From: a virus
DNA: 64,000 bases
IMG/VR virus record: IMGVR_UViG_3300028840_003906
Strand: one strand, 5' to 3'
This document shows, in pieces, positions 12,418 to 25,821 of this stretch. Within the stretch, counting starts at the first letter, position 1. The number at the start of each line of letters is the position of its first letter. The notes beneath the pieces were generated by a model. It saw nothing but the letters and a program-made list of their open reading frames with translations, did not search any database and had not been told where the DNA came from. The position numbers were made by a program, and so were the translations under genes.

Positions 12418-12419
12418 AT

Positions 12420-12492
12420 GGGTTGGTAGCTCAATTGGTAGAGCATCGCGTTACCTATAGGGCGTATGCTGGTTCGAATCCGGCCCTGTCCA
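12420..12492 (+). tRNA. degenerate tRNA (unpaired anticodon arm)
   Basis: D arm GCTC-AATTGGTA-GAGC and T arm GCTGG-TTCGAAT-CCGGC intact; acceptor weak; anticodon stem TCGCG/TAGGG does not pair. Confidence 0.55.
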
Positions 12493-12502
12493 TTGGAGGT
12501 AG

Positions 12503-15643: not shown

Positions 15644-16006
15644 GGGTCCGACACGGTTTCGACTTGCATGAACGAAGTGTGTAGTGCAGGCTCCGGATGG
15701 TCTATCCGGATCAAAAATTGACCGAACAAGTAATTGTCGAAAATTACGAACCAATGCAGGCGGCTGCTTAAACCACCCCTGCCGTCAGACTGGCCGAGCT
15801 TCTCATAGGCCCGATCCTGGCGTCATCAATGAGGATCGCCCTGCGCGGGCAACCCTAAGCGCACGGGTTAAAAAAATGGGTTGCGAAACCTCCGCTGCTC
15901 AGTCTGGTTGCAAACGGGTGGCGGTTGAAATTATGACCGGGCTAAGCCTGTGAATGATCTGCTCATGGAGCATGTGAGGACCCGAGTTCGACTCTCGGCG
16001 GATCCA
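15644..16006 (+). ncRNA. ssrA: tmRNA
   Basis: GGGTCCG/CGGATCC acceptor with G3-U70, 5' ACGGTTTCGAC, T arm CCGAG-TTCGACT-CTCGG, tag frame 15736-15771 = VENYEPMQAAA-stop after GTAATT. Confidence 0.93.
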
Positions 16007-16129
16007 CTTTCGGCTTCGGAACAGTGCCGTAAACTGTTGCCCTGGTGGAGGTGCCGGGAGGCGCCCCGGGCCAAGTAAACTTGCTACAGTTGATCCATGC
16101 GGACGCTGGCAGATTGAAAGGCCCATTTT

Positions 16130-16163: not shown

Positions 16164-16815
16164 GCCTGGGAGCGTTATGGATGGAAGATCAAAGGGTGGA
16201 GTTGAGAATGGAAAAAGGCTGAGGTCCCGTGCGGTTGCCAGGTATTACGAGGATCCCAATGTTTGTGAGAATTGTGGTTCTGTCATCAGGGTTGGAGATG
16301 GTGACAGGGTTTACGATGTGAGGAAGAAGCGTTTTTGCAACAGAAGTTGTGCCGCCTCGTTCAATAACCGGAAGCATCCAAAGAGATTAGCTCGGGAGAC
16401 TTGTGTGTGCGAGGATTGCGGTGATGTTGTTGTCCTGAAGCCGCAGCGTGGTGGAGGATACGTCCAGAGGCGGTTTTGTGACACGTGTGCGAAGGCTAGG
16501 AGGATAGGAGGGAAGCCTATTGGTCTACGCACAAAGGGGGAGGTTTTCTCTGGGTCAAAGAACTGGATATCGGCACGTTCCAGCATAAGGAAGGATGCTT
16601 GGCGAGTGTTTGAGGGTTCAGGGGCCGAGAGGGTGTGTGAGGTGTGCGGGTATAGTTTGCATGTGGATGTGTGTCACATCAAACCGGTTTCGGATTTTGG
16701 GGATTCGGCTCTCGTGAGCGAAGTCAATGATATCTTAAATCTCATTGCTTTGTGTCCCAACCATCACTGGGAATACGACAATGGGCATCTTGATTTGATG
16801 CGGGACAGACAGTAA
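16144..16815 (+). CDS. HNH homing endonuclease inserted in a tRNA-Met locus
   Basis: CENCG...FCNRSC Zn motifs; CEVCGY..HVDVCHIKPV...NLIALCPNHHWEYD HNH core; start may be ATG 16177. Confidence 0.88.
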   Translation: MVTHGSQPGSVMDGRSKGGVENGKRLRSRAVARYYEDPNVCENCGSVIRVGDGDRVYDVRKKRFCNRSCAASFNNRKHPKRLARETCVCEDCGDVVVLKPQRGGGYVQRRFCDTCAKARRIGGKPIGLRTKGEVFSGSKNWISARSSIRKDAWRVFEGSGAERVCEVCGYSLHVDVCHIKPVSDFGDSALVSEVNDILNLIALCPNHHWEYDNGHLDLMRDRQ

Positions 16816-16874
16816 TGGTGCTGTGACGGTCTCATAAGCCGTAATCAGTGTCGGTTCGAATCCGGCTCCCGCTA
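16799..16874 (+). tRNA. tRNA-Met (CAT)
   Basis: GCGGGA/TCCCGC acceptor (1:72 T-T), D stem ACAG/CTGT, ACGGT-CTCATAA-GCCGT, GTCGG-TTCGAAT-CCGGC; 5' end overlaps last HNH codons. Confidence 0.8.
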
Positions 16875-16902
16875 CTAAAGTGATAGACAGAGTGGTCCTG
16901 TT

Positions 16903-19286: not shown

Positions 19287-19358
19287 GCGCTTCTAGCTCA
19301 ATGGTAGAGCCCTCGATCGATAATCGAGAGGTTCCCGGTTCAACCCCGGGGGAGCGCA
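19287..19358 (+). tRNA. tRNA-Ile (GAT)
   Basis: Complete cloverleaf GCGCTTC/GGAGCGC-A, CTCGA-TCGATAA-TCGAG; C at position 33 is atypical. Confidence 0.85.
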
Positions 19359-19367
19359 CAAAGTAGG

Positions 19368-19806: not shown

Positions 19807-20880
19807 ATGCCCGATCTGATCAGATACGGTATTGGTAGGGACTACCTGCCGGACTGGGGGATCCAAGAGGCTCTTCGTGAGGTTTACCAGAACTTCATGG
19901 ACTGGGGCGAGTACATCGAGGAGGCCCGTGTCATCACGGAGGATCATAAGATTTGTGGTATGGAGAGGGAGGCTGTCGAGAACTTCGGTGGGTCGGCCCA
20001 AGAAGTCAGGATGACGAACGACTTCAATCCGTCTGATCTCGGGTTTCTGAAGATAGGGTGCTCTGGGAAGCGTGATGACAGCCGGGCCGTCGGGAAGCAC
20101 GGTGAGGGGCTCAAGATGTCGGCGATGGTCATCGTCCGAGCTGGTGGCCACTTCCGTTTTGCGTTCGACAACAAGATGTTCATGGGTGTGTTCTACCAGG
20201 ATGACCTGATGGGAGAGTGCTTTGGGTTTGAGGTCACAGGGAATAGCCCTGTGGACGGCTTCACGCTTGAGTTCACGGTGCCGGTTGAGGAGTTTGAGAA
20301 GTACCGGGTCAAGAAGATCGATCCAGATGACGTGATCTTTGAGAACGCATTCGGCCAGATGATCAAGAGGGATCCCGGGACGGTGTACGTTGGCGGCCAC
20401 TTTGTGTGCGTGGAGGATGGGTTGAACCATGCGTACAATTTCAGTCCGGAGTTCGTGCAGCTGGATCGGGACCGGAGCGTTCCAAGGGCGTTCGATGTCG
20501 ACTATGCGGCTTCGAGGATCGTGGAGCGTTCGAACGAGATGTCCATCGAGGATCTGGTTGGTCGTGAGGGGACGTATGTGGAGCGTGTCCCAGAGAAGGT
20601 TGCCAAGGCGTTTGAACCGGAGCTTTCGGGTGGCGGGAAGGTGATCTTTCGGACGAAAGACGGTGGCATTCAGGCTCCGTTCAAGGTCGGCGAGAGCCTC
20701 ATGAAGAGGCCGGAGAACAAGAAGAAGGTCAAGAAGCTGCGGTACTCCATGAGCAAGAAGAGGACTCCCCATACGATGCTGAAGGAGTTCTTTGACCGAT
20801 ACCATGTTCATCTCCCTGAGATGGCGAAGATCGACGCTGACAACCTCGTCGCGAAGTCGAAGGGATGGAAGAAGAAATGA
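19807..20880 (+). CDS. GHKL-type ATPase domain protein
   Basis: WGIQEALREVYQNFMD (N-box), LKIGCSGK, AVGKHGEGLK (G-boxes). Confidence 0.75.
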   Translation: MPDLIRYGIGRDYLPDWGIQEALREVYQNFMDWGEYIEEARVITEDHKICGMEREAVENFGGSAQEVRMTNDFNPSDLGFLKIGCSGKRDDSRAVGKHGEGLKMSAMVIVRAGGHFRFAFDNKMFMGVFYQDDLMGECFGFEVTGNSPVDGFTLEFTVPVEEFEKYRVKKIDPDDVIFENAFGQMIKRDPGTVYVGGHFVCVEDGLNHAYNFSPEFVQLDRDRSVPRAFDVDYAASRIVERSNEMSIEDLVGREGTYVERVPEKVAKAFEPELSGGGKVIFRTKDGGIQAPFKVGESLMKRPENKKKVKKLRYSMSKKRTPHTMLKEFFDRYHVHLPEMAKIDADNLVAKSKGWKKK

Positions 20881-21476
20881 TCACCATAGAGATTGACAGG
20901 TCGACGATTCGCCCTAATCCGAACGCTGGGAGGACGTTGCACAAGGTGCCAGGTCAGTCTTCGGGTGTTTTGTCCTTTCGTGGATCGTGTCCGGTTGCAA
21001 ATGGTCTTTCCATCCTGAACGACGTTATGAAAATATTGTCGGAGGCTGGCATTGAGATATTCAGGTTTAGCCGGTGCAGGGGAGATCTTTTCATTGATGG
21101 GGGGTTCTCACCGTATGATAAGGAATTGGATCGGATTAGGTCGGCCCACCATGATGTGAAGAAGATTGCTGGACTCATGGTGGAGGAGTTTGTTTGTGGG
21201 GTTCATACGGAGGTTCAGAGTTTTCGGAGCCTGACTCCGTCTCCGGCCTATCTTTATGAGTACCATGATCGCAACGTTGTGTGCAGAGAGTGCGGCTGCA
21301 GTTTTCCGCATGGCGATCTGGAGGCGGACTACGATGGGTACGGAGAAGATGATGAGGTTTGGTCAAATTCCATTTGCCCGGTGTGCGGAGAGTGGGACTG
21401 TTGCGATTTCGTGTTTGAGGAGCTGTCTTCTGAGATGATCGATGAGTTGGGCGTCGGTGCGGAAGAAAGTTGTTGA
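20877..21476 (+). CDS. hypothetical protein with C-terminal Cys pairs
   Basis: CRECG...CPVCG; ATGA overlap. Confidence 0.55.
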   Translation: MITIEIDRSTIRPNPNAGRTLHKVPGQSSGVLSFRGSCPVANGLSILNDVMKILSEAGIEIFRFSRCRGDLFIDGGFSPYDKELDRIRSAHHDVKKIAGLMVEEFVCGVHTEVQSFRSLTPSPAYLYEYHDRNVVCRECGCSFPHGDLEADYDGYGEDDEVWSNSICPVCGEWDCCDFVFEELSSEMIDELGVGAEESC

Positions 21477-21500
21477 CAAATTTCGAGGAGTGAGTAGTAT
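21473..21500 (+). promoter_or_regulatory. promoter for the Y RNA / Ro60-like unit
   Basis: TTGACA 21473-78 (uses upstream stop codon), 16 nt, TAGTAT 21495-500, about 9 nt before the RNA. Confidence 0.65.
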
Positions 21501-21509
21501 ACAGGACGT

Positions 21510-21636
21510 GGCTGAGAACTGGGGAGACATTCCAGGAAACTAGCTCATTTGGCAGAGCAAAAGGCACATAACCTTTGGGTAGATGGTTCGATTCCATCGT
21601 TTTCAACGAAAAAATGTCTTTGAAACTCTCTCGGCC
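21510..21636 (+). ncRNA. YrlA-type Y RNA (tRNA mimic fused to a long outer stem)
   Basis: GGCTGAGA/TCTCGGCC and AGACATT/AATGTCT stems enclose GGAAAC-TA-GCTC..GAGC-A-AAAGG-CACATAA-CCTTT..GATGG-TTCGATT-CCATC-GTTTTC; directly upstream of TROVE-like gene. Confidence 0.8.
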
Positions 21637-21773
21637 CTCTTTTCTGATTCACTTCTCTAAGAACTGAAAAAGTCGATACAGGTTTTGGATATAAACTAGC
21701 TCGACTTTCGGGTTTTCTTGGGGATTTTTTCCCTCACAGCTGATCACATCTGAGAGAGATGGGAGGTTGAACG

Positions 21774-23390
21774 ATGAAGGACATCATGCAAGCTGGAGGA
21801 CTGTGGAAGGCACCGAGCGCAATCGAGGCGCAGGAGGCGGCTTCCGTTGTGCGATCTTTCCTGGACGTGGCAACCACGTCGTACGGAAGGGCGACCCACT
21901 ACAACACCCGTGAGGAGCAGGTTGCGGCCGAGCGTCGTGTCCACGACACGCTCTTCGGGCAGGGGCGAGATCTGTACGAGGCGCTCCTTCTGATGCCGGG
22001 GGTGACGGATCGGGCTCGCCAGATCGGAATCGGAAAGCTGCTCTCGAACCCGAGGAGTCCGGGGTCGGACATGTTCTTGAACCCATCCCTGGAGCGGGAG
22101 ATTCTCGTGCATCTGATCGGCCAGTTGCCGGTTCCGAGGATGTTCAAGCTCTTTGATGCCTTCCGGGGCAAGGGGGATGCTCTTGGTGTGAAGCGTTCGA
22201 ACAACGCGCGGACCAGGAAGTTGGTCCTGTCGACGATCTTGGGATCGCGGAGGCTTGATCTCTGGGCAGTGAAGTACCGCTCGAAGATGAAGCGCGTCCT
22301 CGGGCATGTCTGGGGGGTTCGGCGTGCGAGCATCATTGCGTCGATCTTGAAGAAGGATGGTCGGACGTGGACCAAGAAGGAGAAGGATATCCTCCGGGAC
22401 AACGTCCTCAAGTTCGTCGGCAACAACAAGAGGGAGTACGTCTTCGAGTGTATCGCGTTCGTCTTCGGTCGGCGTGACCGGCTGAAGGTCCGGCTCCTGA
22501 AGGCGTTCGTGGACGCGCGCGTGGACATTCTGGCTGGTGAGAAGCTCCCGATGGAGGTCCTGGAAGGGATCCGGGGGACGTATCACCCGACGATCGGGGC
22601 CGGGGAGTTGCTGAAGATCAAGGCCAGATCCGGAACGATGACGGACCATAACAAGCGGGTGGTTCAGAAGCGTGCGAACAAGGCGGGGGTCAAGGTTGAT
22701 ATGGATCCGCTGCGGTACGATCCGGTCGATTTGTACATCCACGCATTCGAGAATGGTGTGGACGCGGATATCGTCGCGGCGCTCAAGAAGAAGGCGCAGT
22801 CGGCGGCGGCGGCCCTCCCGGTTCGGTACGAGAACGTGGCGATCCTGGTGGATGCTTCGCGCTCGATGAAGGGGAGCAAGGAGCAGCCGATGAGGCCGCT
22901 GGCCACGGCGCTCTCTCTTCGGGATATGCTGCAGGAGACTTCGGACGACTCGATGATCCTGTATTGCGGTGGCGTCCTGGGGGACGACCAGAAGGTTGTC
23001 AAGCCGCAGGGTGACACGTCGCTCGCAGAGGGCCTCCTTGGCGCTTTGGGGCGCAACCCGGACGCCGTGTACGTTCTGTCGGACGGGTACGAGAACGCGC
23101 CAGCAGGGCGCTTCCAGGACGTCCTCGTGGCGGCTAGGGGGATTGGCATCAAGACGCCGGTTTTCCATATGAACCCGGTGTTCGCTGCAGAGGGTGGCTC
23201 TGTTAGGCAGCTCTGCGACAATATCGAGGGGGCGACGACCATGCCGGTCAAGTCGCCGTCGGCTCTGGCGACCACGATGCTTCGGGGTCTCCTGGAGTCG
23301 GATCCGCAGCGCGGAATCAATGCGTTGGTTCAGAGTGCGCTGAGGGGGTCCACAATCGAGAGCTTGGCTCTCATTGGAGGTGAGTCATGA
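21774..23390 (+). CDS. Ro60/TROVE-like protein: helical N-terminal region plus vWA domain
   Basis: vWA MIDAS LVDASRSM...GDTSL...VLSDGYEN; ~370-aa basic helical N-terminus; adjacent Y RNA supports the Ro60 call. Confidence 0.65.
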   Translation: MKDIMQAGGLWKAPSAIEAQEAASVVRSFLDVATTSYGRATHYNTREEQVAAERRVHDTLFGQGRDLYEALLLMPGVTDRARQIGIGKLLSNPRSPGSDMFLNPSLEREILVHLIGQLPVPRMFKLFDAFRGKGDALGVKRSNNARTRKLVLSTILGSRRLDLWAVKYRSKMKRVLGHVWGVRRASIIASILKKDGRTWTKKEKDILRDNVLKFVGNNKREYVFECIAFVFGRRDRLKVRLLKAFVDARVDILAGEKLPMEVLEGIRGTYHPTIGAGELLKIKARSGTMTDHNKRVVQKRANKAGVKVDMDPLRYDPVDLYIHAFENGVDADIVAALKKKAQSAAAALPVRYENVAILVDASRSMKGSKEQPMRPLATALSLRDMLQETSDDSMILYCGGVLGDDQKVVKPQGDTSLAEGLLGALGRNPDAVYVLSDGYENAPAGRFQDVLVAARGIGIKTPVFHMNPVFAAEGGSVRQLCDNIEGATTMPVKSPSALATTMLRGLLESDPQRGINALVQSALRGSTIESLALIGGES

Positions 23391-24367
23391 CAAGACGGAA
23401 CATGTCAATGGACGACATCCTGTTCGGCATAGGGCACGGACGTCGTCAGACGGTCGGAAACATGGATGTCATCCCGCTTGTGGATGAGGGTGCCGATCGT
23501 GGAGAGGAGTTCATGCCTCCGACGGAAGTCGAGGTCGGGACTGAGGAATACGGAACGGTCAGCATGAGGCACAGCGGGGATTCCCCGACGGTCATGCCGA
23601 CAGGGTCGTGCTGGGTTGTCAAGGAGCGTGCGCAGGATCATGCAATCGGCAGCGGTGTGCTCTTGGCTCCTGGGGACTCGAAGACGATCCGGGACGCCAT
23701 GTGCATCCAGTCTTCGCAGAGCGGCATGATTCGGCGACAGGTCCAGGATCTGACGATTTTGCCGGTTGGTCTGCGAACGAGGGCTCTTGCCCTACGTGGA
23801 CGACAGGATTATTCGAAGCTCTGGGGGAGCATTGGCGAGTTCAACAAGGGATACGGATCCAGTGATGAGCAAGCCCTGGTCTACTTCCTGAGGAACTTTG
23901 GCAAGCAGCTGGATCAGTTTGTTGCCGAGTTCGAGTTGGTTCCTGGTCAGGTTGGCGCGATCATTCTGGTGAACGGAAAGCTGGTCGGCGTCGAGGTGGC
24001 TCCAAACAGTTTGTTCTGGGAGTCGATTTGGGAGCCGATGATCCGGGTCTGCTACGGCTCGTTCGCGATTCGGTATGCCGATCAGGCTGCTCCGACGAGG
24101 CGCCAGCTGGATGTCTCCACGAAGACCCTCGATGGTCTTTGGGATGCGTATCAGAAGGCGGCCCAGGATGATCATGATCGGACTGAGTTGATCGTCGGCA
24201 AGGTTCGAGAGGATCGCCTCCTGACCGGGACGATTGACCAGGCAGCTGGGGGCTACGAAATGAAGACGGTCGGGTCCCCCGGTGGAACAGAGCTGGCTGG
24301 TCAGATTGTCCAGCGAGCAGGCCACAAGGCCGCATCCTACCTTTCCATGTGCGTCAAGGTCGATTAG
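23387..24367 (+). CDS. ARPP-1 (DUF6569)-like domain protein
   Basis: AQDHAIGSGVLLAPG...AMCIQSSQ and QVGAIILVNGKLVGVEVAPNSLFWESIW resemble the family pattern; ATGA-coupled to the vWA gene. Confidence 0.55.
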   Translation: MTRRNMSMDDILFGIGHGRRQTVGNMDVIPLVDEGADRGEEFMPPTEVEVGTEEYGTVSMRHSGDSPTVMPTGSCWVVKERAQDHAIGSGVLLAPGDSKTIRDAMCIQSSQSGMIRRQVQDLTILPVGLRTRALALRGRQDYSKLWGSIGEFNKGYGSSDEQALVYFLRNFGKQLDQFVAEFELVPGQVGAIILVNGKLVGVEVAPNSLFWESIWEPMIRVCYGSFAIRYADQAAPTRRQLDVSTKTLDGLWDAYQKAAQDDHDRTELIVGKVREDRLLTGTIDQAAGGYEMKTVGSPGGTELAGQIVQRAGHKAASYLSMCVKVD

Positions 24368-24444
24368 GTCGATGAGTTTGCACCTGTCGCTTGCAATCAC
24401 AATTCACACAGAGTTAAGGTGTCCATCTGCTGACGGAGGGATCT

Positions 24445-25821
24445 ATGGACAGGAGTAGTATCATTCGGGCCTTTTCGAAGGCCGTGAACCGTAAACATGG
24501 TTGCACGATGGGGCTCGCGAGGAACATTGCGAGCGTGGACATTCCGAGGCTCGACACGGGGAGTTTGAGCTTCAATGTGGCGCTTGGAGGTGGCATCCCT
24601 GTTGGGCGTCTGACAATGTTTCGGGGAAAGTACTCGTCTGGAAAGACGACGGAGGCTCTTCGGGTTGCTGCGAACGCGCAGGATCTTTGTGCGAACTGTC
24701 TGCGTCCGGTCGACGATTTCGCGGTGATCGAGTCTGGTGTTGATGACGAAACTGGCGAGGTGATATACGAGGCGATTGGGACCTGTGACTGCTACAGCGA
24801 AGGTCTCTTCAAGCCGGTGCCGTATCCTGAGGAGTATTCGGACCGGATGAAGGGAACGTTCAAGCAGATCGAGATCGAGGTGATGGACGAGAAGTCCGGG
24901 AAGATGAAGAAGAAGAAAACGACTTTGTACAAGGAGCGGCTCAAGAGGTATGAGGAGAATTCATACGAGCCGTATCGCATCGTCTTCTTTGACTTCGAGG
25001 GGACCCTGGATCTGGAGTGGGCGGAGCGCATTGGTGTGGATACGAGGATTTTGCTAGTGGATCGACCTGGTACCGCAGAGGAGGGCATCGACGTGTATGA
25101 CGAGCTACTCCGTACGGGCGCGGTGGACCTCTTCCTGCTCGATTCGATTGCTGCCATGACGCCCAGCGTGGAGATTGAGAAGAGCACGGAGGATGGGCGC
25201 ACACGGGCCGCACAGGCGATCCTAGTGAACCAGTTCGTGCGGAAGATCACTGCTTCGGCCAATGATTGCAAGAAGTTCTATGATCGGTCCGTGACGCAGA
25301 TCTGGATCAATCAGGAGCGCGACAGCATGGATCCGTTCAACCCGAAGACGATGCCGGGTGGGCATGGGCAGGAGTTCGGTGCTTCGGTGATCGTCTCGTT
25401 CTGGCCGAGCAAGTGGAACTCGGACGCCATGGATGATGATGTCAAAAAGGACTTCCAGATTCAGATCGGGAAGGAAGTCCGGCAGAACTTCAAGGTCGAG
25501 AAGAGCAAGGTATCGACTCCGAAGGCGACCGGCATGTTCGTCATGTGTATCAGTGGTGCAGAGTCCGGGCAGATTGATGAGTTCAAATATGTCCTGGATC
25601 AGGGGGAGCGGTATGGGCTCTGGCACGAAGAAGGGAAGGCGCCGAAGAAGAAGTGGTATCTTTCTGATGAGGAGTTCACGAAAAAGGCGTCGCTCCTGGC
25701 TCGGGTTCGGGAGCCAGAAGTTTTCAAGTCGATGAAGAAGGAGCTTCTGAGAAGGATGCTCGAAAAGATCAAGGGAACGGCAGAGGGAATCGAAAGGGAA
25801 GCCGAGAATGCCGAAGGGTAG
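24445..25821 (+). CDS. recA: RecA/UvsX recombinase with internal insertion
   Basis: LDTGSLSFNVALGGGIPVGRLT, Walker A GKYSSGKT, FFDFEGTLD, LFLLDSIAAM, WINQER, PGGHG. Confidence 0.92.
   Translation: MDRSSIIRAFSKAVNRKHGCTMGLARNIASVDIPRLDTGSLSFNVALGGGIPVGRLTMFRGKYSSGKTTEALRVAANAQDLCANCLRPVDDFAVIESGVDDETGEVIYEAIGTCDCYSEGLFKPVPYPEEYSDRMKGTFKQIEIEVMDEKSGKMKKKKTTLYKERLKRYEENSYEPYRIVFFDFEGTLDLEWAERIGVDTRILLVDRPGTAEEGIDVYDELLRTGAVDLFLLDSIAAMTPSVEIEKSTEDGRTRAAQAILVNQFVRKITASANDCKKFYDRSVTQIWINQERDSMDPFNPKTMPGGHGQEFGASVIVSFWPSKWNSDAMDDDVKKDFQIQIGKEVRQNFKVEKSKVSTPKATGMFVMCISGAESGQIDEFKYVLDQGERYGLWHEEGKAPKKKWYLSDEEFTKKASLLARVREPEVFKSMKKELLRRMLEKIKGTAEGIEREAENAEG

Follow-up and report, generated by a model that had tools for sequence, protein, structure and literature searches.

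What is produced from a viral locus in which a tRNA-like RNA, a gene for a protein with a vWA domain and a gene for an ARPP-1-like protein follow each other on the same strand? We addressed this question in a stretch of 64,000 nucleotides (nt) from the IMG/VR virus record IMGVR_UViG_3300028840_003906 (hereafter, the window), which is part of a 124.7-kb viral contig that is approximately 68% complete. Ro60 and the Y RNAs have been studied for a long time, their function is murky, and Ro60 is an autoantigen in humans. For bacterial Y RNAs, the question is what their tRNA-like module recruits. An initial annotation of the window had read the locus as a promoter followed by a YrlA-like RNA, a Ro60 counterpart from a divergent vWA family and an ARPP-1-like protein, and each of these elements is present where it was placed. 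The analysis reported here makes it likely that the locus is an operon for a diverged ribonucleoprotein of the Ro60/Y-RNA type with a new obligate partner, ARPP.

Organization of the module

The features of the module, all on the forward strand, are as follows.

21473..21500, + strand: predicted sigma-70-like promoter, TTGACA-16 nt-TAGTAT (10 of 12 matches)
21510..21636, + strand: RNA1, a Y-like RNA whose handle carries a colinear tRNA mimic (ARAGORN, Rfam, minimum-free-energy (MFE) fold, handle model)
21510-21517 paired with 21629-21636, + strand: outer stem (P1) of RNA1
21518-21522, + strand: 5' internal loop of RNA1, ACUGG
21523-21531 paired with 21613-21621, + strand: inner stem (P2) of RNA1
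21534..21607, + strand: tRNA-shaped cargo (cloverleaf) of RNA1, ARAGORN tRNA-Met(CAT)
21622-21628, + strand: 3' internal loop of RNA1
21637..21650, + strand: U-rich tract after P1 of RNA1, read directly; possible leaky terminator or 3' tail
21654..21724, + strand: RNA2, a Y-like RNA in which the same handle bears a plain hairpin as cargo (54.9 bits with the handle model R1, of which it is a seed), followed by UUUUUU
21774..23390, + strand: gene 1, encoding the 538-amino acid (aa) protein, Ro60-like by predicted fold; Shine-Dalgarno sequence GGGAGG upstream
23387..24367, + strand: gene 2, encoding the 326-aa ARPP-1 protein (PF20208 match); ATGA overlap with gene 1

The promoter is the sole site of its kind within 20800-24800, and the same TTGACAAAT... 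promoter is present at an equal distance (-37/-38) in the two closest relatives, L001 and L002; strong promoters precede the first handle RNA in ten of 41 loci. In agreement with the initial annotation, which had the RNA begin within about 9 nt of the promoter, RNA1 starts 9 nt past the -10 hexamer; it is exactly 127 nt long and ends 138 nt before gene 1. Genes 1 and 2 overlap by ATGA, and a GGAGGTGA Shine-Dalgarno sequence is located just upstream, within the end of gene 1, which supports the proposed translational coupling of the helical and vWA domain-containing protein to the ARPP-1-like protein. RtcB had been noted as missing from the window; neither RtcB nor Pfam TROVE was found anywhere in the 124.7-kb record at its 68% completeness.

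The 538-aa protein has a Ro60-like predicted fold

The product of gene 1 consists of a TROVE-like helical region (residues ~20-350) followed by a vWA domain (residues ~351-510) with a complete metal ion-dependent adhesion site (MIDAS) motif, DxSxS...T...D, of which D360, S362, S364, T415 and D437 do not vary among 41 sequences. The family is large: more than 330 full-length homologs with at least 47% identity were returned in one search, and 678 clusters at 50% identity were found in a library of 1.84 billion representatives (E-value up to 1e-3). The protein itself has no sequence match in Pfam, PHROGs, NCBIfam, PADLOC or PDB, a profile search of PDB likewise gave nothing meaningful, and the only Pfam matches among 41 family members are to VWA_CoxE and VWA_2. 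As a control, canonical Ro60 genes from five carrier genomes do match the Pfam TROVE models.

The relationship to Ro60 emerges from the predicted structure. For an AlphaFold model of the full-length protein based on 41 sequences (predicted local distance difference test (pLDDT) score 83.6), the top 11 Foldseek matches in PDB were all Ro60/TROVE proteins (E-values 3e-7 to 5e-5), including Xenopus and human Ro60, Deinococcus radiodurans Rsr and the Ro60 of Thermus phage phiLo. With VIA-align, Ro60 structures matched the full model with Z-scores of 13-17.5 over ~400 aligned residues, compared with at most 12.5 for vWA-only matches; vWA structures aligned to residues 350-505 with a Z-score of ~12. 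Because the vWA domain could carry the full-length match, residues 1-350 were folded alone (pLDDT 89.5). When this N-terminal domain was compared with 48,161 PDB chains (VIA wide), three Ro60 representatives came first, i.e. 1yvp_A (Z-score 11.8, 278 residues aligned), 2nvo_A (Z-score 11.4, 265 residues aligned, root-mean-square deviation 4.1) and 9l5y_B (Z-score 11.1). These alignments span 253-278 residues and cover the whole domain, and the next match had a Z-score of 6.5. The TROVE-ring fold that had been anticipated for the N-terminal region is, thus, recovered in the predicted structure, with Ro60 chains as the top three of all chains compared. In profile-profile alignments (hhalign) against five canonical TROVE proteins from carrier genomes, an E-value of 4e-5 was obtained over residues 311-478, corresponding to the last helices and the vWA domain, and clusters named TROVE are among the nearest neighbours in the ESM Atlas (0.98). 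The predicted fold gives the protein a Ro60-like architecture, and by sequence it falls outside the TROVE family. This predicted fold together with the adjacent RNAs supports the initial reading of the divergent vWA family as a Ro60 counterpart.

Two upstream RNAs share a conserved handle

The cargo of RNA1 resembles a tRNA closely. It scores 46.3 bits with the Rfam tRNA model (gathering score 29), its D arm and T arm show the canonical residues in their loops, and no CCA is encoded. ARAGORN calls it a cloverleaf, and the absence of U33 that had been pointed out for its loop (CACATAA in the DNA) is read directly: in the anticodon loop CACAUAA, position 33 is A and not U. In addition, positions 1 and 72 form an A-A mismatch. 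A functional tRNA-Met would have U33, a paired position 1-72 and an anticodon that is conserved among orthologues; RNA1 has none of these, and in the closest relatives the corresponding RNAs have the anticodons ACG and UUA.

In the MFE structure, the 5' and 3' flanks of RNA1 form a long bulged stem, and this handle continues from the acceptor end of the colinear cloverleaf. Because the single-sequence folding energy of RNA1 is unremarkable (z-score -0.87), the stem rests on comparative evidence. Owing to misalignment of the flanks, MAFFT and RNAalifold on the raw flanks recovered only the three tRNA arms and, therefore, the folding of cognate and non-cognate flanks and a covariance model of the handle were used instead. 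The folding energy is -28.5 kcal/mol for cognate pairs of 5' and 3' flanks versus -17.2 kcal/mol for non-cognate combinations. Among 15 hairpin-type RNAs, 15 of the 17 pairs show compensatory change, and none of 500 shuffles reaches the score. The cloverleaf continuing into a long bulged stem, as originally described, is, thus, backed by the MFE fold, by cognate-flank folding and by covariation.

The same handle is found in RNA2, which is located between RNA1 and gene 1 and was absent from the initial annotation. In RNA2, the handle comprises P1 (UCUCUAAGA/UCUUGGGGA), ACUGA, P2 (AAAGUCGA/UCGACUUU) and the junction UACAGG. More generally, it is composed of the outer stem P1, an asymmetric internal loop with ACUG or ACGG on the 5' strand, the inner stem P2 and a UNCAG junction, and the conserved 5'-strand motif is read as R-ACUG, GAACUG or GGACGG. 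The handle model R1 was seeded from hairpin-type RNAs including RNA2, and although RNA1 was not in the seed, the model recovers it with 30.2 bits (E-value 0.003).

We scanned 644 kb of DNA with this model (E-value up to 1). The scan returned 81 RNAs, RNA1 of the window among them, in viral loci and in 24 of 35 bacterial loci, and all 81 are upstream of the gene and on its strand. In two planctomycete genomes of 10.5 Mb and 10.8 Mb, the best genome-wide match falls at the locus, and the whole phage record contains no further copies. For 69 distinct RNAs aligned to the handle model, an alignment that is fitted to the model, 88% of the cells pair versus 61% after shuffling and 35-49% after sliding. 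Stretches with at least five T in 10 nt follow 49 of the 81 handle RNAs compared with 16 of 81 control windows. A regex-and-pairing scanner for handles was noisy (175 forward versus 69 reverse) and served for candidate finding only. These RNAs have a conserved handle fold, and they are linked to the gene.

The cargo varies while the handle is kept

Y-like RNAs had been expected upstream of homologs of gene 1, and tRNA-like RNAs are indeed found there: ARAGORN detects a tRNA-like gene upstream of the gene in nearly all of 26 related viral loci, and the handle model detects the 81 RNAs described above. The anticodons in the viral loci are unrelated and often impossible (ACG, UUA, ACA, AUC, AGU and ACU), and odd or impossible features among the cargos include 6-nt loops, A34, a residue other than U at position 33 and Ser or Leu anticodons in bodies that lack a long arm. 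By class, the 81 cargos are colinear cloverleaves (29), T-loop-bearing non-colinear structures (18), hairpins (19) and other inserts (15). Visual inspection of the non-colinear structures revealed two circular permutations in which a loop closes the acceptor stem, with ACCA in a few cases. An example is the permuted mimic at L010 3808-3941, in which the handle encloses a T arm, an acceptor hairpin with ACCA in its loop and a D arm, in that order; essentially the same segment (L010 3809-3943) is the best match to Rfam YrlA among the relatives, a weak full-length match of 31 bits versus a gathering score of 69. In Planctomycetota (L034, L037, L039-L042, L044, L047 and L051), equivalent colinear handle RNAs of 117/118 nt are present in which the anticodon drifts (Lys-CTT, Lys-TTT, Leu-TAG without a long arm, Asn-ATT) and the remainder is kept.

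The designation of RNA1 as YrlA-like, thus, holds in part. The tRNA-like module near the gene, on the same strand and within 4 kb, agrees with it; the Rfam threshold, the topology and the motif do not. The RNAs described here are not Rfam YrlA, and RtcB is not part of the module.

ARPP is the constant partner

The gene 2 product matches ARPP-1 (PF20208) with 93.4 bits (cut-off 27; E-value 2e-26), and searches of PHROGs, PADLOC and NCBIfam returned nothing for it. ARPP has been defined as a predicted enzyme by a conserved Cys and Gln (PMC9503650). Among 56 sequences, Q21, Q83, H85, C106, E183, E203 and R220 are invariant and form a candidate catalytic set that includes Cys, His, Gln and Glu, in keeping with ARPP being a predicted enzyme. 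ARPP is encoded directly downstream of the gene in every locus with DNA at this position (L001-L064). This 100% synteny and the translational coupling support that ARPP is an obligate partner of the Ro60-like protein.

One 884-aa protein (P0219), encoded on a 5,996-nt Logan contig, has the TROVE-like and vWA regions (residues 12-511) fused to ARPP-1 (residues 562-831), which could reflect either a Rosetta-stone fusion or an artefactual frameshift at the ATGA overlap. A search for longer fused forms (at least 943 aa) found none. Four distant relatives (L065-L068; 24-30% identity over ~415-430 matched aa) have no downstream ARPP, handle RNA or Pfam match and may represent a separate branch.

Carriers and genomic context

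The bacterial carriers belong to Myxococcota, Planctomycetota, Bacteroidota, Actinomycetota and others, and most bacterial copies are located inside dense tRNA arrays with up to ~39 tRNA calls per 11.5 kb. Arrays of 20-40 genes per ~10 kb surround the module in L028, L029, L030, L037, L058, L060 and others. The published surveys of tRNA arrays (PMC4758250, PMC8421152) do not mention the gene pair. In Minicystis rosea (L070 1378-3075, L028 5001-7492), the TROVE-like/ARPP pair is preceded by a canonical Ro60 gene (TROVE 148 bits, vWA_Ro60 217 bits), which is encoded on the same strand at a distance of ~3.5 kb; a dense tRNA array separates the two, and no YrlA was detected beside this canonical gene at an E-value of up to 0.01.

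In the window, the module is flanked by a transfer-messenger RNA (tmRNA) and tRNAs on one side and by a RecA-like gene on the other. The tmRNA (tag VENYEPMQAAA), a tRNA-Met and a tRNA-Ile are just upstream (15644-16009, 16799-16875 and 19287-19359) and the module, thus, lies in the tRNA/tmRNA region of the phage; L001 and L002 share the layout of tmRNA and tRNA genes followed by the module. Directly downstream, at 24445-25821, is a divergent RecA-like gene of 458 aa (Pfam RecA 122 bits, far under the TIGR02012 cut-off). Domain searches of the window genes flanking the module revealed no genes of the ARG or rhodanese-phosphatase type known from conflict systems. Farther away, at 12419-12493, ARAGORN calls a tRNA-like gene with the four-base anticodon ccta (Rfam tRNA 40.3 bits), which could be a tRNA of the frameshift-suppressor type or another mimic.

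DNA identical to the stretch is present in marine sediment and seawater metagenomes, as revealed by a search of sequencing runs. Among 50,697 phage records, megablast found no match to the locus, and no cultured phage resembles it; tblastn gave one match, to an unannotated uncultured huge phage.

Alternative explanations

Several observations weigh against the interpretation of the locus as a Ro60/Y-RNA-type operon. On the protein side, none of the 41 family members matches the Pfam models for TROVE and vWA_Ro60 (PF05731 and PF25045), for TROVE even at an E-value of up to 10; the N-terminal helices are not covered in the hhalign alignments to the five canonical TROVE proteins; Foldseek with the N-terminal domain alone gave nothing significant, with Rsr at rank 27 though with the best TM-score; and all structures used are predicted models. 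On the RNA side, Rfam YrlA has no match in 21300-21900 at an E-value of up to 10, the handle motif (GAACUG) differs from the GNCGAAN0-1G motif of YrlA, and none of the sequencing runs that contain the stretch is an RNA run. The fusion of the two proteins is a singleton on one short contig. Finally, RNA binding by the protein, the tethering of ARPP and the biological role are inferences.

With these points in mind, the simplest competing explanation is that RNA1 is an ordinary phage tRNA-Met (or tRNA-Ile2) with a leader and trailer that pair by chance, while the genes for the vWA protein and ARPP are unrelated neighbours. The ARAGORN call as tRNA-Met, an Rfam tRNA score above the gathering score, the other tRNAs and the tmRNA in the region and the unexceptional folding energy of RNA1 (z-score -0.87) all fit with this idea. 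However, it leaves A33 and the A1-A72 mismatch unaccounted for, the covarying handle is common to RNA2, which has no tRNA, and every handle RNA precedes the gene pair and shares its strand; moreover, the anticodon loops in relatives are different, impossible or 6 nt long, and some of the tRNA bodies are permuted, with a loop closing the acceptor stem. We consider this explanation largely refuted and very improbable. A related explanation takes the tRNA likeness at face value and holds that the handle is a clamp storing inactive pro-tRNAs, which are released by RNase P/Z or by the Ro-like/ARPP pair, so that the two proteins would be processing factors or chaperones for tRNA arrays. It draws on the 29 of 81 cargos that are complete colinear cloverleaves, some with plausible anticodons, on the location of the module in tRNA arrays and on the YrlA of Mycobacterium smegmatis, which is cleaved by RNase P and receives CCA (PMC4201824). 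By contrast, 19 cargos are plain hairpins, and clear permutations with a loop-closed acceptor stem occur among the non-colinear cargos; these cannot give rise to a normal tRNA. Even among the colinear cargos, many are unable to decode (class II anticodon without a long arm, non-U33, 6-nt loops), and the anticodon drifts among close relatives (CTT, TTT, TAG and ATT in planctomycetes). We regard storage of pro-tRNAs as unlikely.

The third explanation concerns the protein, which could be a generic chaperone for ARPP made of helical repeats and a vWA domain with no kinship to Ro60, next to independent RNAs that function, e.g., as terminators or processing signals. The lack of a TROVE sequence match is in line with this, as are the vWA proteins reported as chaperones beside ARPP (PMC9503650), the middling Z-scores that helical repeats often reach and the terminator-like appearance of P1 followed by a U-tract. 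Yet only Ro60 matches the whole N-terminal domain, with the top three places among 48,161 chains and a gap of ~5 Z units; profile alignment matches the junction between the helical and vWA domains to canonical TROVE proteins; and termination needs neither a conserved ACUG and UNCAG nor tRNA-shaped cargos. A generic chaperone is, in our estimate, improbable to much the same degree as pro-tRNA storage, and all three explanations are less likely than a Ro60/Y-RNA-type operon.

A model for a proposed Ro60/Y-RNA-type particle

We suggest a model in which one promoter, predicted from its sequence, would drive both small RNAs and the two coupled genes. As the covariation shows, each RNA forms the handle by pairing of its two ends; the handle carries a variable cargo, which in RNA1 is a complete colinear tRNA mimic unsuited to decoding and in RNA2 a hairpin. 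The 538-aa protein, with the TROVE-like helical domain and the MIDAS-bearing vWA domain of its predicted fold, would most likely use its surface to bind the handle, much like Ro60 with the conserved stem of Y RNAs, a suggestion that we make because of the analogy to Ro60/Y RNA and the strict linkage between gene and RNA. ARPP, as the constant partner, would probably be held via the MIDAS site of the vWA domain or via the tRNA-shaped cargo; that the RNA tethers ARPP is pure speculation on our part. In the complete particle, ARPP would be the effector. Because the module is located among tRNA genes in the phage and in most bacterial loci, the particle would most likely act on or sense tRNAs, and its role might be surveillance, repair or a decoy function in a phage-host conflict over tRNA, which is the least certain step of the model.

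In a broader and more tentative version of this model, which we see as possible rather than probable, the locus would represent an unrecognised branch of Ro60/Y-RNA systems. In such a branch, a common handle would carry interchangeable tRNA-shaped cargos, with several points of attachment on the tRNA body, a cryptic TROVE ring would be hard-wired to ARPP, and phage and bacterial tRNA arrays would carry the particle as a sensor, decoy or repair platform over tRNA integrity.

The module would offer a fixed candidate effector, ARPP, for a system of the Ro60/Y-RNA type and, conversely, would provide this orphan predicted enzyme with its first concrete context, an RNA setting. The occurrence of the same handle with a colinear tRNA body, with a non-colinear and in some cases permuted one, or with none amounts to a natural experiment in cargo design, and cultured carriers exist for genetics (Minicystis rosea, Stieleria, Novipirellula and Yinghuangia). 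For annotation, the data serve as a warning that some "tRNA genes" in phages and tRNA arrays are not tRNAs; Pfam, PHROGs, NCBIfam, PADLOC and Rfam recognise only the ARPP domain and, in some members, the vWA part.

Comparison with known systems

A literature search found no published description of the module, and a survey of jumbo phages mentions only canonical TROVE. ARPP itself is known from conflict systems centred on ADP-ribosylglycohydrolase (ARG) (Iyer et al. 2022, PMC9503650). These systems share with the module the ARPP-1 domain with its conserved Cys and Gln, and vWA proteins have been noted as neighbours. However, no ARG, rhodanese-phosphatase, Nudix, WYL or HIRAN gene is adjacent to the module here, and the pairing of ARPP with a Ro60-like protein and tRNA-mimic RNAs is not among the contexts described (PMC9503650).

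The closest parallel in overall design is bacterial Ro60 (Rsr) with YrlA/YrlB in Salmonella, M. smegmatis and mycobacteriophages (Chen et al. 2014, PMC4201824). In both cases, a protein of ~530 aa with a helical ring and a vWA domain is encoded just downstream of at least two small RNAs on the same strand, one tRNA-like and one a hairpin, and base pairing between the 5' and 3' ends of the RNAs creates a stem whose 5' strand has a conserved motif. Moreover, some of the relatives' RNAs have the order of YrlA, i.e. T arm, closed acceptor hairpin and D arm, and a few have ACCA in the loop. The differences are that the family described here has no match to Pfam TROVE or to Rfam YrlA (RF02553; best relative 31 bits versus 69), that GAACUG/ACUG takes the place of GNCGAAN0-1G, that the constant partner is ARPP instead of RtcB/RtcA, and that the module is located in tRNA arrays. 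The topology differs as well: in YrlA, the acceptor stem is closed by a loop and the protein-binding stem extends from the position of the anticodon stem, whereas RNA1 is joined at the acceptor end of a full cloverleaf and RNAs of relatives are attached to the handle elsewhere on the tRNA body.

In this last respect, RNA1 is closer to the RNAs of the D. radiodurans Rsr, Yrn1/Yrn2 and PNPase complex (RYPER), in which the protein-binding stem extends from the acceptor side and an "anticodon arm" is present (PMC4201824). RYPER also has an enzyme tethered to the ring through its Y RNA, similar to what we propose here for ARPP. By contrast, Yrn1 resembles a tRNA only in part, with a 6-nt loop and no clear D arm, and the effector of RYPER is the host PNPase, which is not co-encoded, and ARPP is not involved.

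The Ro60 of Thermus phage phiLo with Yrl1/Yrl2 (PMC12135203; PDB 9l5y, 9kop) is described as a Ro60 homolog, while the protein here has no Pfam TROVE match, and neither ARPP nor a cloverleaf cargo has been reported for phiLo. Still, the phiLo protein is, like the protein described here, encoded by a phage, and it binds two Y-like RNAs of this phage. It is also the best structural match to the full-length model of the 538-aa protein, with Z-scores of 16.3-17.5 over ~400 residues at an identity of ~12%.

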